The notes below the pieces were generated by a model, which saw only the letters and a list, made by a program, of their open reading frames with translations, did not search any database and was not told the origin of the DNA. DNA of 27,305 bases from Candidatus Odinarchaeia archaeon (lineage in GTDB: Archaea > Asgardarchaeota > Odinarchaeia > Odinarchaeales > Odinarchaeaceae): NCBI GenBank assembly GCA_029856525.1, contig JAHQXC010000009.1, forward strand, positions 1 to 27,305, written 5' to 3'. A program made the position numbers and the translations under genes. Shown here in pieces: positions 1-27,305 of this stretch (position 1 is the first letter of the stretch; every line of letters begins with the position of its first letter).

Positions 1-36
1 TTTACATTTCTTCTTTTTTACTCTTCCAATTTTTAA

Positions 37-216
37 CTTTACCGTTGGAAAGCCCCCTCGAAAACTGTTGATTAAATGCGAAAAGATATTTATAGTTTCA
101 AAATCGTCAAAAAGGATACAGATGCTGGGCTGGCTGGTCCTGTGAGGCTCGCTGAGACGGCTCCTCTACTGTTAGAGATGACAGCAAGCTCCTTCCGATA
201 AGGAGGAGTAGTTCAC
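37..216 (+). mobile_element. Non-autonomous IS200/IS605 mini-element (PATE-like), copy 1; left-end hairpin degenerate
   Basis: Follows TTTAA (32-36). Begins ctttaccgttggaaagcccc, similar to ctttatcggcgtgaagtccc at 16068. Shares tatttatagtttcaaa(a)tcgtcaaaaaggata with 16118-16148. Ends in a right-end hairpin ctcc-ttcc-gata-agga-ggag followed by tagttcac, matching the ggagtagctcac end of the TnpB element at 27305. No ORF. Confidence 0.8.
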
Positions 217-1917: not shown

Positions 1918-2559
1918 ATGCAGATTGAAAAATTATTAAACTCGTTAGCGGAGAATTTAACCCCTGAGCTTATAAAATTCATCACACCGCCTGAAGGCGC
2001 TGTTAAGACGCCTACAACCATATATAGAGGTGTTCTTTTAATCGAACCTGCTTTAACAAAAACAGCGTTGAAATTTCAAGCAGACGAGGAGTTTAAAAAA
2101 CATATATCCACTAATTTAGTTTTAGGTTACACTCAAGCTGATGCAACAGATCAAACTTTAATTCTCCGTAGACTTGTAGGCTTCTTATGTTTCCCCAGTC
2201 CTTTAGAAAGCTATGCTCGTAGAAAAACTTTAGATGAGTTGAATCAAGTGAAATCGGATTGGATTCTTGGCTTAAACGCTCAAGCAAATCATAAAATATT
2301 CTTTTATCTTAACTTCACAATCCCTAGGGTTAAAGCTATTTATAGAGCTGAATTACCGTTAAACTATACTCCGGGAGATAACACCACTTACACTTCTAAA
2401 AGATTTATCGAATCGTTTAAACACTTCCTCCAGTATTTTAAAACGCTCTCAGAGACACCTGGCTTAGATTGGGTTAAATTAACTCAGACGAGTGTAGGCT
2501 ACCTTGTTGTTTTAACTTCGAAAGCAGGAGAGGTGTCCGAACAGGTTTTTGAATTATAA
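1918..2559 (+). CDS. Hypothetical protein (213 aa)
   Basis: Long ATG-initiated ORF filling the gap between acr3 and nfo; no motif recognised; stop overlaps the nfo stop (ttataa). Confidence 0.65.
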   Translation: MQIEKLLNSLAENLTPELIKFITPPEGAVKTPTTIYRGVLLIEPALTKTALKFQADEEFKKHISTNLVLGYTQADATDQTLILRRLVGFLCFPSPLESYARRKTLDELNQVKSDWILGLNAQANHKIFFYLNFTIPRVKAIYRAELPLNYTPGDNTTYTSKRFIESFKHFLQYFKTLSETPGLDWVKLTQTSVGYLVVLTSKAGEVSEQVFEL

Positions 2560-3429
2560 CTCTGAGATAATCTTCTTAACCACTCTCATATTATCTAAGT
2601 CGCTTCTCCGCTCGTCTACAGGTGTCTCCATTATTAAGGGTCGCTCTCCTAAGCAGCTTTTAAGGAAGTTTTTAAATCCGTCAACGCCTATCGAACCTAA
2701 ACCTATATGCTCATGTCTATCAATATGGGATCCTAATCCCCCAACCGAATCGTTTAAATGAATTAAATAGACTTTTTCAACACCTATGTTTTCATCTATT
2801 TCTTCAACAGTTTCATTCACGCCGCTGACAGTTTTAATATCATAGCCTGCAGCCCAGCCGTGACATGTATCAAAGCAAAACCCGATGTCACCGCTATTCC
2901 TAACACCGTCGATTATATCCTTGATGTGCTCGAATCTTGAGCCTATACTATTAGGCGACCCGGCTGTATTCTCTAATAGAATTTTAACCCTCCCCTTACA
3001 TAGGCTGCTCGCCAGGTTAAGCGCGTCTACGATTCTTCTAACACCGTTACGATAACCTTCCCCTAGATGTGAACCTAAATGAACTACTGTGAACGGTATG
3101 CGCAGTCTTATACATCTTGAAACCTCGTTTAAAAGTGTTTCAACAGACCTACTGTACACGTCTATTTTAGGTGAAGCGAGATTCGGTAGATAAGGCATAT
3201 GCGAGAAGACTATTTTGAAACCTTTTTCAATTCTCTTCTCAATGAATCTTTCAACCTCTAAATCGTTTAGGATTCTAGGCCTCCAACCGCGGGGGTTTGT
3301 AGTGAAGATTTGAAATGCAGTGCAACCTAATCTATAAGCTCTCTCAACCGATAAATCTATTGAACCTTGAATTGAAACATGAAAGCCGATTAAAGACCCT
3401 TTATAAGCGTTCTGAATATTCATATTCAA
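2554..3429 (-). CDS. nfo: Endonuclease IV (AP endonuclease 2)
   Basis: HMPYLPNLAS, VVHLGSHLG, LLENTAG, FCFDTCH, HLNDS and DRHEHIGLG zinc-ligand motifs. Confidence 0.95.
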   Translation of the reverse strand: MNMNIQNAYKGSLIGFHVSIQGSIDLSVERAYRLGCTAFQIFTTNPRGWRPRILNDLEVERFIEKRIEKGFKIVFSHMPYLPNLASPKIDVYSRSVETLLNEVSRCIRLRIPFTVVHLGSHLGEGYRNGVRRIVDALNLASSLCKGRVKILLENTAGSPNSIGSRFEHIKDIIDGVRNSGDIGFCFDTCHGWAAGYDIKTVSGVNETVEEIDENIGVEKVYLIHLNDSVGGLGSHIDRHEHIGLGSIGVDGFKNFLKSCLGERPLIMETPVDERRSDLDNMRVVKKIISEL

Positions 3430-3504
3430 TCTAAAACCACCGGTAGTATCGCGCTCTATTGAGATGATAACTTAACTTAAAGCTTAATTTAAAATATTAT
3501 TTAA

Positions 3505-3717
3505 CCTCATAGGCGGGAAACCTCTTTCGATAGGGAGGGTGAGAGCTGATAATCTTATAAAAGAGATAGTTACATTATAATAAATAAGGATGCGAGGTTC
3601 GACGGGTCTAAGCTGCCTGCTTAGGGTGGGGCGTCACTTCACATCTCTGCGAACCGATAATTGGTGGGGCCTGCTCAAGGAGGCATAAACCACTGTGAAA
3701 GCTAGGAGTGGTTTTAC
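3505..3717 (+). mobile_element. Divergent IS200/IS605 mini-element, copy 3 (left end + promoter + structured RNA + right-end-like tail)
   Basis: TTTAA (3500-3504), then cctcataggcgggaaacctc, aligning with the left end at 16068. Hairpin cctc-tttc-gata-ggga-ggg; TTATAAAA at 3555-3562; GC-rich scaffold ending ggagtggttttac (compare ggggtagtttac at 16233-16244). Confidence 0.55.
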
Positions 3718-3721
3718 ATCC
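3588..3721 (+). ncRNA. Structured non-coding RNA (~134 nt), possibly HgcC/sotRNA/omegaRNA-like
   Basis: GC-rich island behind a TATA box. Hand-found helices: ggatg/catcc, ggttcg/cgaacc, ctaagc/gcttag, gtgggg/cttcac, gcct/aggc, aaaccact/agtggttt (with a GAAA loop). Confidence 0.65.
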
Positions 3722-3740
3722 AAAAGTTTATTAAACAAGT

Positions 3741-3760
3741 CGTATTAAACGTTTAATACG
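3741..3760. promoter_or_regulatory. Perfect 20-bp palindrome between the Sm TATA box and RBS
   Basis: cgtattaaac|gtttaatacg; TATA-like tttattaaa at 3728-3736; RBS ggagg at 3774-3778. Confidence 0.5.
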
Positions 3761-3786
3761 GTTTAAATTTTTTGGAGGATTGTGTT

Positions 3787-4047
3787 TTGGAAAGGCAGCC
3801 GCTTAAACTTCTCTCGAAAGCGCTTAACAACCTAGTACTAGTCAAGTTGAAAAATAAGAAGGAATATGTTGGTCGTCTAACAGAAATGGATGTTTACATG
3901 AACATTGTCTTAGCTGAAGCTGAAGAAATAGAGGATGATAAACCTATAGCAAGATACGGTGAAATATTCATACGAGGAAATAATATTCTTTATATTAAAC
4001 CTGATGTTACATTAGACTGGTTGAAACGTAGAACATCTCAGAGTTGA
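3787..4047 (+). CDS. Sm-like archaeal protein (SmAP/Lsm)
   Basis: Sm1 motif VLVKLKNKKEYVGRLTEMDVYMNIVL and Sm2 motif IFIRGNNILYI. TTG at 3787 preferred over 3772 because ggagg lies 8 nt upstream. Confidence 0.95.
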   Translation: MERQPLKLLSKALNNLVLVKLKNKKEYVGRLTEMDVYMNIVLAEAEEIEDDKPIARYGEIFIRGNNILYIKPDVTLDWLKRRTSQS

Positions 4048-15900: not shown

Positions 15901-16067
15901 CTATAAATCATTAAAATCACAGGATGCGTTGAATCGTTAACTATAGTAAATTTCATAAAACCCTCCTAAGAAGTTTTTCGAATTTAACAGCAGAATATAA
16001 GGCTACCACAAGCCTCCGCCTATTCCCTCTTTAACATTATTGTAAGCTGATGCGAGGTCTCTTTTAA

Positions 16068-16244
16068 CTTTATCGGCGTGAAGTCCCTTGCGAAAGCTAA
16101 GGGATAAAAGCCGAAAGTATTTATAGTTTCAAATCGTCAAAAAGGATAGAGAAGCGGGCTGAGACGGGGCCTCTACCGGTCGAAACAGCAGCAAGCTTCA
16201 TCATTAAAGTAGGAAGCCCCATCCGATAGGGAGGGGTAGTTTAC
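16068..16244 (+). mobile_element. Non-autonomous IS200/IS605 mini-element (PATE-like), copy 2, with both ends
   Basis: TTTAA (16063-16067); left hairpin ccctt-gc-gaaa-gc-t-aaggg; BRE/TATA cgaaag-tatttatag; scaffold gagacggggcctctac...agcaagc...ggaagcccc-atcc-gata-ggga-gggg-tagtttac. No ORF. Confidence 0.85.
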
Positions 16245-23085: not shown

Positions 23086-24288
23086 TTAAGCTTCCAGCTT
23101 CTTACTTTCTAATATTTTTATACATCTTTCTTCAAGCACTTCAGCCGGTAGATCATATAATCTTAGCACTGAGCGTCTACCACGTCTCCCAGATCCGAGA
23201 CTTATAACAGTGCTTGAAATTATTCCGAGCTCTGTTAAAAATTTAATAAATTCTCTGAAAGCTGACTTAGACTTAGCTTCTATATTATACTCTTCGCAGA
23301 CGGTCTTATAATATTCATAGGCTTCTTCTATAGTAGTTGAAATAACACCTTTATGTTTAAGTCTTTTAGCTACTGCTAGAGCTGAAATCAATTCATGTGT
23401 TTTCAAATCATGGAAGATATCAGCTCTAAACTCTGGGAAAACCTCGTCTTTAGCTTTTCTAACCATCTCCGGTGTGATAACATCTTCGGCGAGATGGTCT
23501 GCTATCTTACCGGCTCTGAAAAGCAGTTCTATAGCGTGCCTGGCGTTCTCTGTTTTAGAAGCTATATCCGCTACCATTTCAAGTACTTCGTCGGATATAA
23601 CCCCCGGTTTGAAAGCTAACCCTGCCCTGTAACGTACTATCTTGAGAAGAGTATCCTTACTGTATCCGGCTAACATCATCTGATCTGTTATTCTACCGCT
23701 TAGTGTATTGTTTAATAGCATTCTCCACTCGTTTAGCCTACTTATTATAATTGTTGAAATACGAGGTGAACCGGGGCTGTAAACTTCATTACTTCTTATA
23801 ATACTCAGTATAGCTTCACCGCCTAGGATATATGCTTCATCTAAGCCGAGTATTAAATGAGCTTCTTCTTTATTTAATCGCTTTAACAGTATACTTAACA
23901 ACTCTTCATCAGAGAACCCTCTGCTTGTTATATTAAACTTAGCTAGAATATTACTTAATACACTGCTTTTCGTCCTAGCGGCGAAGCAGTCTATATACTC
24001 GAAGATAATTTTACGTTCCCGTCTCTTACCGTACTCAACGAGGTTCTCCCCGAAATTTCTTACAAGCGCAGTTTTACCTGATCCAGGGGGGCCTATAACA
24101 GCTATGTTCACAGAATAGCCGCTTTCATCTAAAGTGAGATTCTGGAAATCTAAGATAAGACGTTGAAGCTCAGCTTCTCTACCTGGAAGTTTCTTCGGAA
24201 CATAGCTTGGGGATAACGTATACTCCGCGTTCTTTTTAAACACACTTTTCTTACTGATATACTTCTCGATATCCCAATCTTCTTCCAT
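23086..24288 (-). CDS. cdc6: Cdc6/Orc1 family replication initiator
   Basis: Y.P..LPGRE, Walker A GPPGSGKT, Walker B LDEA, ARHAIELL.RAG.IA and a C-terminal winged helix. Confidence 0.92.
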   Translation of the reverse strand: MEEDWDIEKYISKKSVFKKNAEYTLSPSYVPKKLPGREAELQRLILDFQNLTLDESGYSVNIAVIGPPGSGKTALVRNFGENLVEYGKRRERKIIFEYIDCFAARTKSSVLSNILAKFNITSRGFSDEELLSILLKRLNKEEAHLILGLDEAYILGGEAILSIIRSNEVYSPGSPRISTIIISRLNEWRMLLNNTLSGRITDQMMLAGYSKDTLLKIVRYRAGLAFKPGVISDEVLEMVADIASKTENARHAIELLFRAGKIADHLAEDVITPEMVRKAKDEVFPEFRADIFHDLKTHELISALAVAKRLKHKGVISTTIEEAYEYYKTVCEEYNIEAKSKSAFREFIKFLTELGIISSTVISLGSGRRGRRSVLRLYDLPAEVLEERCIKILESKKLEA

Positions 24289-24300
24289 TAAACCCCACCG

Positions 24301-25545
24301 CTATAGTTTCTCCCATTCTTTGATGCTGGTAAGAGTTTGAACCTTTCTTATTCCTTCTATTTTTTCAAGCTCTGTGACGATTGTTCTATAAGCTTTACCT
24401 AGACTCCTGATTTTAAGCTCAGCTATCAGCTTATTCTCTCCGCTCACAGCTGAAATCCTCGATATCCCCTTAATCTTCATCAATGTTTGCAGGATTGAAC
24501 CGGCGCTTTTCTCTATATATATTAGAAGATAACCTTTAACCTGGGTTGTAGCTATGGTGAATATTCCTACAGTTATCATAAAAGCTCCTGTAAATGTCAG
24601 CATCCCGTATATTCCTGTTAAGTTAATGGTTCCGAAACCTCCTGGTATTAACATATTACCTATCAGGGTGAAAGGGATACCTAGTATAACTGTGAAAGCT
24701 AGTATCGCGTTCACTATACTCATTTTTGCAACAGCTAGCGCTCTAATATATGTTATAGACGCGAAAGTAGCGGCCATCATATCTACTACTATAAGTAGTA
24801 TAAGTAAAGGTGTCAGTGAGAGAATGTAACCTATACCTTGAGGAGTGAATATGAAAGGAGCGAAGATTATAGTTGTGAATACACTGTTTAACGTTAAAAC
24901 CCATAGCCTGATATTTAAAGAGTCGACACGCTCCCCCATGTAAATACGTCTTTTAGCGTTTCGAACAGCTACTGTGAAGACAACACCGCTAATATTATAG
25001 GGTCCTAAAACTATACCGATAGTAAGAGGATTGAAAGCGACGTCGCCGACCGCCATTAGGAAGACGCCTGTCAATATTAGAATAATGCTTTGAACTTCTA
25101 TTATAGTAGGCGCGTCTCTATCGCTCATAGACTCTAAAACTATTAGATACACGATCATTAGTTTAGAGAATGGTAGTATAAGCGCGGGATTAGAGACTGA
25201 AACAAGTTGAAAATATGTGAACGTGGATATCGCGCCTGCTAAAGCTGCGATTACAATCCAAACCAGTAATCCCCCTTTAGGAAGTATAATTCTTCGAAAA
25301 TTCGGGTCAACATATTCTCCTAAGCATCCGCCCCATTTTAATGGGATCATCATAATTACCATTAAAACTATAAGAGAAACAGTTCCTAACCAGAGTGATA
25401 TAAAAGTGAAGGAGAATGCGTCGGGTATAAAATGTGTTAAAAGCAGTTTATCCATTTCAACATAAACAGCTGTTAATATAGCTGATATTAAAGGGAGCAG
25501 TACAATCTTAATTTTCCTAGTTAAGAAAAGCCATGGGTGAATCAT
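24301..25545 (-). CDS. EamA/DMT-like membrane protein fused to a C-terminal Lrp/AsnC (RAM) ligand-binding domain
   Basis: About 10 hydrophobic segments in two halves, then GYLLI...IKGISRISAVSGENKLIAEL...LEKIEGIRKVQT. Confidence 0.75.
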   Translation of the reverse strand: MIHPWLFLTRKIKIVLLPLISAILTAVYVEMDKLLLTHFIPDAFSFTFISLWLGTVSLIVLMVIMMIPLKWGGCLGEYVDPNFRRIILPKGGLLVWIVIAALAGAISTFTYFQLVSVSNPALILPFSKLMIVYLIVLESMSDRDAPTIIEVQSIILILTGVFLMAVGDVAFNPLTIGIVLGPYNISGVVFTVAVRNAKRRIYMGERVDSLNIRLWVLTLNSVFTTIIFAPFIFTPQGIGYILSLTPLLILLIVVDMMAATFASITYIRALAVAKMSIVNAILAFTVILGIPFTLIGNMLIPGGFGTINLTGIYGMLTFTGAFMITVGIFTIATTQVKGYLLIYIEKSAGSILQTLMKIKGISRISAVSGENKLIAELKIRSLGKAYRTIVTELEKIEGIRKVQTLTSIKEWEKL

Positions 25546-25944: not shown

Positions 25945-26062
25945 ATTCGCTTATAATCGATTATAAAGAAGGGTGCCCAGAAAACCCCTAACTTCAGTTA
26001 GGGGATGAATGGGCAGAAACTTAAATATCCATACGTGCTTAAAAAGTTTTAGGGATGTTCCC

Positions 26063-27289
26063 TTGCAGAAGGATGTTCAGATTACGGTCGTAGGAAAGGT
26101 TTTCAAGCCTAATCCAAGGAAGGTCTTAGCCCTAAACATAATTCTGCACGAATACTTTGAGCTTGTGAAGTGGTATCTTGGCTTTAACTCTGATTCTAAG
26201 ACGTTTCTGCACGAAAACGGTTATGAGAGGGCTAAGAGGCTCTACAACCTAAACACCGCTTTAATTCAGACAGCTAGAGATAAAGCTGTTGAAATCCTCA
26301 AGAGTTTTGGAGAAAACAGAAATGAGAACAGCGTTCTTAGGCTTAAGCGTATATCCATACGCTTTGACAAAAGATGCTACAATTTTTCGAAAACGGCTAA
26401 TCTCTTAACGCCATATTGGTTAACTTTAAGCCTAAACAAAAGAGAAAGAATTAGCTTACCAATAGTCTTCGGGAAGAGGCAGAAAGAGAGGGTTGAAGGA
26501 GTATTTAAGGGAGATTTATCTTTCACAACAGTTGAAATGGTTAAGCGCGGCAGAGAGTGGTACGCCCATTTTATCCTATCGAAAACTGTTGAGCTGCCGG
26601 ATGAGCCTGAAACAGTGATAGCAATAGATAGAGGAGAGCACAACCTAGCCGTAGCAGCCGCCATTTCAAAGCGTAAGCCAAATAAGCCCATGAAGGGACA
26701 GTTCTGGCGCGGCGAAGAAATCAAGCGCATTAGAGGTCTATACAGTCACATCAGAAGGAAACTTCAGGAAAGGCATAGGTTAGGAAAGATTAAGGAGTTT
26801 AAGGGCAGAGAGAGGCGTAAGGTAAACCAACAACTCCATATAATAGCAAACCAGATAATCGCCTACGCCAAGCAGTTCCCAAAGCCAATAATAGTAATGG
26901 AGAACTTAAACGGAATACGAAGAAACTTCAAAAAGTCCAAGAATCTTAACAGGCGGTTCCACAGCCTTCCATTCAGAAAACTTCAGGCAATCATAGAATA
27001 CAAGGTAAACCTAGAGGGAATAGAAGTAAGATACCTCCCAAGGAAGGAAGTAAAGAACACATCGAAAACCTGCAACAGATGCGGGCATGTTGCCCAAATG
27101 AAACCGTATGAAAGGGAATTAAAATGCCCAAAATGTGGGTTAATCTACAACCGGGATCTGGACGCATGCATAAACATAGCCCATGCCTTAATGAGAGGCA
27201 TGGGATGGCGGAGCTGTGAGCCCCGCGAACCAGCACGTGTAACTGAAGGCGTAAAGCCTCAGACGAACGCTGGAAGCTCCCGACTTTAG
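26063..27289 (+). CDS. tnpB: TnpB RNA-guided endonuclease
   Basis: RuvC-I AIDRGEHN, RuvC-II VMENL, zinc finger TSKTCNRCG...CPKCG and RuvC-III NRDLDACINI; D-E-D triad intact. TTG 26063 preferred (cttaaata promoter upstream); the ORF track starts at 26009. Confidence 0.95.
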   Translation: MQKDVQITVVGKVFKPNPRKVLALNIILHEYFELVKWYLGFNSDSKTFLHENGYERAKRLYNLNTALIQTARDKAVEILKSFGENRNENSVLRLKRISIRFDKRCYNFSKTANLLTPYWLTLSLNKRERISLPIVFGKRQKERVEGVFKGDLSFTTVEMVKRGREWYAHFILSKTVELPDEPETVIAIDRGEHNLAVAAAISKRKPNKPMKGQFWRGEEIKRIRGLYSHIRRKLQERHRLGKIKEFKGRERRKVNQQLHIIANQIIAYAKQFPKPIIVMENLNGIRRNFKKSKNLNRRFHSLPFRKLQAIIEYKVNLEGIEVRYLPRKEVKNTSKTCNRCGHVAQMKPYERELKCPKCGLIYNRDLDACINIAHALMRGMGWRSCEPREPARVTEGVKPQTNAGSSRL

Positions 27290-27305
27290 TCGAGGAGTAG
27301 CTCAC
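27203..27305 (+). ncRNA. omegaRNA/reRNA scaffold overlapping the tnpB 3' end
   Basis: gtgag (27216-27220) is complementary to the terminal ctcac (pseudoknot); right-end hairpin present; guide lies outside the window; 5' boundary uncertain. Confidence 0.7.

Follow-up and report, generated by a model that had tools for sequence, protein, structure and literature searches.

The window analysed here is a stretch of 27,305 nt from a Candidatus Odinarchaeia archaeon (contig JAHQXC010000009.1, positions 1 to 27,305), in which the segment of interest lies in the spacer between two divergently transcribed genes, one for an nfo-type AP endonuclease and one for an Sm-like archaeal protein. The Sm ORF was listed as starting at 3772; the likelier start is the TTG at 3787, placed behind GGAGG at 3774-3778, and the Sm BRE and TATA box (aaaag tttattaaa) occupy 3722-3735. 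The locus, as we read it, consists of the following features.

2554-3429, minus strand: gene for an nfo-type AP endonuclease (Pfam AP_endonuc_2, E 8e-43), left neighbour, divergent from the Sm gene
3500-3503, plus strand: TTTA(A), target or transposon-adjacent motif directly 5' of the element, with a 1-nt ambiguity over which A belongs to the flank
3504-3717, plus strand: very probable ORF-less IS200/IS605-type mini-element (PATE/MITE), complete, 214 nt; its exact deletion restores the congener sequence
3504-3632, plus strand: left-end-derived part with subterminal hairpin, promoter and leader (nhmmer, blastn and pairwise alignment)
3521-3538, plus strand: left-end subterminal hairpin, CCTCT...GGAGG (DNA fold)
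3555-3562, plus strand: element-borne archaeal TATA box, ttataaaa (aligned to homologous left-end promoters)
3588-3717, plus strand: putative omegaRNA-like scaffold, about 45 nt of left-end leader and 85 nt of right-end part (by position and architecture only)
3633-3717, plus strand: putative right-end part, 85 nt with two hairpins and undetectable ancestry (by layout)
3687-3714, plus strand: right-end subterminal hairpin, 8-bp stem and 12-nt loop (DNA fold -5.7 kcal/mol, z -2.35)
3718-3737, plus strand: host flank, invariant in all four genomes compared; would-be guide of a read-through transcript (role assumed after PMC10055086)
3787-4047, plus strand: gene for an Sm-like archaeal protein (Pfam LSM, E 3e-22)

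A first-pass annotation had described the stretch from 3588 to 3721 as a highly structured 134-nt RNA welded to the Sm promoter, possibly a domesticated omegaRNA. The TATA box, stems and hairpins that it listed were all recovered within 1 nt: ggatg (3588-3592) pairs with catcc (3717-3721), the ggttcg (3596-3601)/cgaacc (3650-3655) helix encloses two hairpins, gcct (3669-3672) and aggc (3681-3684) form a further hairpin, and aaaccact (3687-3694) pairs with agtggttt (3707-3714). The last of these had been called GAAA-capped; the 8-bp stem is there and GAAA lies within its loop, but the loop has 12 nt and is not a GNRA tetraloop. Likewise, the RNA had been said to end 7 nt before the Sm TATA box, and we measured 6-7 nt. 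The minimum free energy of the segment is -46.9 kcal/mol, with the listed helices present, which corresponds to a z-score of -1.62 relative to dinucleotide shuffles, 15 of 200 of which were equally stable; the opposite strand scored -1.49. The fold is not exceptional for its composition, and with such a z-score the assertion that extensive pairing has been kept lacks statistical backing; the sequence is a singleton, which leaves no covariation to draw on. The GC island itself is real, with a GC content of 0.59 at 3600-3679 versus 0.31-0.35 on either side. Rfam yielded no match over the whole window at gathering thresholds and only chance matches at E-values up to 10 for positions 3400-3850, so that the Rfam check suggested in the earlier annotation matched the RNA to no family; ARAGORN found no tRNA, no ORF of at least 50 amino acids lies within 3430-3771, and stop codons interrupt every forward frame.

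The decisive evidence comes from related genomes. A DNA search of 40 relatives produced matches in three congeners only (G001, G002 and G003, three other species of the same genus; the present genome is G000), confined to the final 48 nt of the query sequence, that is, to the Sm promoter. All three carry nfo and Sm in the same divergent arrangement, separated by a short spacer without the GC-rich segment. The orthologous nfo on the flank of the empty site is 74-80% identical to the present gene at the DNA level and the Sm gene is 85-86% identical, showing that these are true orthologous loci of different species. When the 214 nt from 3504 to 3717 are removed, the window aligns without gaps to G001 and G002 across the joint (...AATTTAAAATATTATTTA/ATCCAAAAGTTTATT...), with ~75 nt fully identical to G001; the empty site of the congeners reads ...ATTATTTA/ATCC... 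(the slash marks the joint). There is no target-site duplication, and an exact empty site without one is the signature of IS200/IS605 insertion. The empty orthologous sites thus indicate that 3504-3717 is an insertion in the lineage of this genome. They also set the right boundary at 3717/3718, which led us to reject a boundary at 3692, where ATAAACCAC can be aligned to TAGTTCAC of the mini-element family described below. ATCC at 3718-3721 is host flank, unchanged at the empty site of all three congeners. Because these four nucleotides, which are four of the five 3' bases of the ggatg/catcc closing stem, are old flank, the stem exists as pairing but is an accident of the landing site.

The comparison of the nfo-Sm locus bears directly on the first-pass annotation, which had itself named absence from orthologous loci as evidence against its reading; absence from G001-G003 is what we observed, and since the element is missing from the orthologous loci, covariation there is impossible. 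An insertion confined to the lineage of this Odinarchaeota genome is the best explanation, and one in which, taken as a whole, we have high confidence. An older insertion, since lost from the three congeners, is a less likely alternative, conceivable because IS200/IS605 elements excise precisely; it needs more events. Contigs of the probable source sequencing run contain the filled site only, and none with the empty site was found among them. Among the sequencing runs listed as containing the locus there was no RNA run.

The segment is not the only one of its kind in this genome. An iterated nhmmer search over the whole assembly uncovered ~22 full-length ORF-less copies of 160-230 nt, plus fragments, in the 1.3-Mb genome. 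Nearly all of them are immediately preceded by TTT(T)A and start with AAC(T/C)T(T/C)AT...; at the other border the copies close with a hairpin and T(T/C)AC, and their sequences are unrelated beyond both borders. Two other members lie in the window, together with an intact tnpB:

31-216, plus strand: mini-element copy 1 (nhmmer E 4.8e-32)
16062-16244, plus strand: mini-element copy 2 (nhmmer E 8.7e-56)
26009-27289, plus strand: intact tnpB, 426 amino acids (Pfam Cas12f1-like_TNB, E 4.6e-17; Cas12f/TnpB structures, E 9e-14)

Copy 1 can be aligned, over its right half, with the final 113 nt of the intact tnpB element (27193-27305) at a z-score of 7.2, and both end in GAGGAGTAG(T/C)TCAC, indicating that the family consists of a promoter-bearing left end fused to a tnpB 3'/right end, that is, to the omegaRNA region. 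The 3' end of the window tnpB, with its right end, is the source type of the right halves of the family. The genome contains two intact tnpB genes and a single tnpA (Y1_Tnp confirmed); the latter is located on contig C44 with a tnpB after it and forms the only autonomous IS605 element. A covariance model trained on the RNA halves of 16 family members recovered copy 1, which was outside the training set, with 27.2 bits (E 5e-4) and identified 19 copies in G000 and 0 in G001-G003, in which tnpB is absent or reduced to broken remnants. This distribution points to a recent lineage-specific burst of mini-elements in this genome. The RNAalifold consensus of the 16 RNA halves is weak (-5.1 kcal/mol, 4 pairs with double changes) and therefore provides no firm structural yardstick.

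Several features of the family and its surroundings deserve mention in their own right. The mini-element occurs in a long and a short form, and the ~25 nt that distinguish them lie between two imperfect direct repeats (GGGCTG.../...CTGCTGAGAC); this suggests that the forms may have arisen by deletion at microhomology shared by the left-end leader and the tnpB 3' region. The right end (GCTCAC) of the intact tnpB element is exactly where the contig stops, and the contig starts ~30 nt before copy 1; in this metagenome-assembled genome of 127 contigs, assembly breaks probably fall at these repeats. Just ahead of the tnpB element, an Orc1/Cdc6 gene adjoins a gene for a 414-amino-acid protein with an Lrp/AsnC ligand-binding domain (23086-24288 and 24301-25545, both on the minus strand), and a replication origin may be situated nearby.

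The left part of the element between nfo and Sm (3504-3632) belongs to this family. The family profile matches 3500-3608 with an E-value of 1.9e-11, blastn aligns the left part at 77% identity over 104 nt with C44:7990-8092, directly upstream of tnpA, and at 78% with C119:677-773, and 3588-3632 can still be aligned to the long-form copies (z about 3). The hairpin at 3521-3538 occupies the place of the CCCCC...GGGGG hairpin of the family; taken alone, it is no more stable than shuffled sequences, and the match of the right-end hairpin positions of the family model to 3519-3543 is weak and not significant (9.1 bits). In alignments, the TATA box at 3555-3562 falls on CTTATAAAAG in C44 and C119a, and on TATTTATA in the main family. 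Given that the left end matches the DNA upstream of the C44 tnpA, this TATA box is the homologue of the left-end promoter of the autonomous IS605-type element; from the usual spacing, transcription would be predicted to start near 3585-3590. Membership in the same family as the two other mini-elements of the window, with the RNA segment placed between an element-borne promoter and a right end, bears out the omegaRNA-like placement proposed earlier. The accompanying claim, that the segment is related to the tnpB-end repeats and far more diverged than they are, stands as far as the left and central part is concerned; no relationship is demonstrable for the last 85 nt.

Indeed, those 85 nt (3633-3717) resemble the family in layout and not in sequence. 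Aligned pairwise with five copies of the family and with the 3' ends of both tnpB genes, they scored within the shuffle distribution, with a z-score of -0.7 for the tnpB 3' end at 27121-27305 and nothing better than shuffles for the C44 tnpB 3' end. The family covariance model did not recognise the RNA half (6.7 bits, E 6.5, at 3582-3642), no second copy of 3633-3717 was found elsewhere in the genome, BLAST of 3588-3717 against 400 Asgard genomes gave chance matches of 17-33 nt only, and exact-pattern scans of metagenome contigs (twice) and of viral contigs returned nothing. The three reading frames, compared with TnpB C-termini, all gave E > 0.1, the sequences being too short. What is shared is the ending: TTAC at 3714-3717 lies exactly at the empty-site boundary behind the 3687-3714 hairpin, and family right ends have at the same place a hairpin followed by TTCAC. 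We thus use the right-end and omegaRNA labels for 3633-3717 as putative ones, taken from position, hairpin layout and the TTAC terminus. Because the flanks adjoining the element are identical to those of G001, the divergence of the right part did not arise by decay in place. Most likely, we infer, the copy came from a different, unsampled master element; the source of 3633-3717 is absent from the assembly, which is 93% complete, and the copy is probably inactive or an orphan.

The isolation of the right part leaves room for the idea that 3633-3717, or all of 3588-3717, is an unrelated cellular non-coding RNA, for example one bound by L7Ae, that sits beside a left-end remnant or was captured by it. 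The K-loop is a motif bound by archaeal L7Ae. The hairpin at 3687-3714 can be read as such a motif (stem AAACCAC/GUGGUUU, a 3-nt UGU bulge, then GA ... GA), a resemblance that may be due to chance; together with the GC-rich island and the lack of a detectable relation between the last 85 nt and the family, it is what speaks for this explanation. However, the segment arrived with the left end as one 214-nt unit, its hairpin and TTAC ending resemble family right ends, Rfam offered no match even at an E-value of 10 and no tRNA was found, homologues are lacking in the 400 Asgard genomes, the metagenome contigs and the viral contigs, and an essential cellular non-coding RNA would not be missing from the congeners. 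We regard a cellular RNA of this kind as very unlikely.

Taken together, the observations assign 3504-3717, with high confidence, to the non-autonomous IS200/IS605 mini-elements (PATE/MITE), inserted between the divergent nfo and Sm promoters. No IS family is more widespread in archaea than IS200/IS605, which most Asgard genomes carry (PMC13343696). Of the features that characterise the family, we observed the absence of target duplication, a tnpA-type left end, hairpins at both ends without terminal inverted repeats, the absence of an ORF and membership in a multicopy set; at the right end, the hairpin and T(T/C)AC terminus are shared, and the similarity of 3633-3717 to the parent right end is not significant. 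As for the features of a TnpB omegaRNA, the segment ends at the transposon right boundary and has no scaffold match to a cognate tnpB end.

Peel-and-paste transposition coupled to TnpB homing is the established model for such elements (PMC10055086), and the locus can be read along its lines. The element inserted 3' of TTTA(A), with no target duplication, into the nfo-Sm spacer, its parts being a left end with a subterminal hairpin, a tnpA-type promoter, a short leader and a two-hairpin right part that ends in TTAC. TnpA, the Y1 transposase encoded on C44, would mobilise it in trans in single-stranded form. Transcription from the internal promoter would begin near 3588 and continue past the right end into the flank; there, AUCCAAAAGUUUAUUAAA... 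would serve as a guide directed at the empty site behind TTTA(A), which a TnpB provided in trans would cut again after excision, thereby restoring the element. Both transcription from the element TATA box and omegaRNA function of this copy are extrapolated from the model, and a working omegaRNA is, in our estimate, unlikely but a real prospect; its role is doubtful because the right half matches neither resident tnpB 3' end. The would-be guide (3718-3737) does cover the Sm BRE and TATA box, as had been pointed out, but this follows merely from the landing site: any DNA that happens to flank the right end becomes the omegaRNA guide, and the insertion occurred 4 nt upstream of the Sm BRE. The position beside the Sm promoter is incidental.

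The closest known counterparts are the PATE-like/MITE elements of Geobacillus stearothermophilus; as described by Meers et al. (PMC10055086), PATE-like ORF-less derivatives of IS200/IS605 often encode omegaRNAs, to be used in trans by TnpB. Both sets are ORF-less and about 200 nt long, have subterminal hairpins at the two ends and no inverted terminal repeats, insert 3' of a short motif without duplication and depend on tnpA and tnpB in trans; a right half derived from the tnpB 3' end is also found in the sister copies in this genome. The differences are that the host here is an Asgard (Odinarchaeota) archaeon, that the cassette would drive the right-end RNA from a former tnpA left-end promoter and that the right half of 3504-3717 has no sequence relationship to the resident tnpB ends. 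Compared with the omegaRNA (reRNA) of TnpB from IS605/IS1341-type elements, the putative RNA has the same right-end position, ends at the boundary with the flank as guide and is likewise GC-rich and multi-hairpin, in our case as predicted from the DNA sequence alone. In contrast to those RNAs, no tnpB reading frame overlaps 3588-3717; neither sequence comparison nor the covariance model matches it to the 3'-end scaffolds of the window tnpB (26009-27289), and pairwise alignment to the C44 tnpB 3' end shows nothing either. The third parallel is the RNA-257 family of Sulfolobus, which had been invoked in the first-pass annotation and is indeed a tnpB-derived antisense regulator (PMC3674436). These archaeal small RNAs also exist in paralogous copies derived from IS200/IS605 tnpB ends. 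RNA-257, however, acts via extended complementarity to an mRNA 3' UTR (PMC3674436), whereas no such target is evident for the 3504-3717 copy, which is a singleton absent from relatives and lies upstream of its neighbour gene, not antisense to it.

The existence of tnpB-derived regulatory RNAs (PMC3674436) and of domesticated TnpB repressors, as reported in PMC10705468, lends some appeal to the proposal that the element is a domesticated omegaRNA or cis-regulator of the Sm gene, retained because it exerts transcriptional interference, forms a 5' leader or guides a TnpB-derived repressor. The element points in the same direction as Sm and stops 4 nt short of the Sm BRE, has its own TATA box at the right distance and lacks a strong oligo-T terminator before the Sm promoter, with only TTTT at 3712-3715. 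Yet the element is absent from the orthologous nfo-Sm spacers of three congeners in which the Sm promoter is otherwise almost the same, which means that Sm expression does not need it. Moreover, this is a single copy with nothing conserved to compare, and the family copies show no significant preference with regard to the downstream gene (15 in the same orientation versus 8 in the opposite one, in a rough ORF-based count). Domestication at the Sm promoter, whether as partner RNA or as cis-regulator, is very unlikely. An equally small chance attaches to the specific scenario in which the element promoter yields an omegaRNA-like transcript across the Sm BRE and TATA box that has been co-opted to modulate SmAP or to recruit, for example, L7Ae via 3687-3714; if true, a mini-transposon would have been domesticated very recently in an Asgard archaeon. 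The last alternative, that no element exists and the structure arose by chance in ordinary intergenic DNA, could appeal to the fold z-score of only -1.6 but is refuted by the significant family-profile match of the left end and the clean 214-nt presence/absence polymorphism at the empty site, and is at odds with the GC island as well, leaving it with virtually no credence.

The Sm promoter has a feature of its own. A perfect 20-nt palindrome, cgtattaaac-gtttaatacg, is found at 3741-3760, between the Sm TATA box (3727-3735) and the Shine-Dalgarno sequence and start codon. Its 18-nt core is kept in G001, differs by a single change in G002 and has degenerated in G003; with up to 2 mismatches allowed, the genome contains no further occurrence of the palindrome. 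It may act as an operator or a 5'-UTR hairpin peculiar to the Sm gene. Conservation is higher over the 60-nt Sm promoter as a whole than in the coding regions.

The segment at 3504-3717 matters little alone, being one diverged copy of a mobile mini-element: in all likelihood it is a new, diverged member of a known element type and an ordinary insertion, not a conserved partner of Sm. The filled and empty states of the nfo-Sm locus, taken as a pair, fix the element borders and the TTTA(A) target motif. For annotation, the value lies in the burst of promoter-bearing ORF-less IS200/IS605 mini-elements, ~22 in 1.3 Mb and none in three congeners, and in the warning that GC-rich, hairpin-rich intergenic islands in this genome are not to be taken for cellular non-coding RNA genes. 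The same set of elements could help in testing two intact Asgard TnpB nucleases together with their natural guide cassettes.
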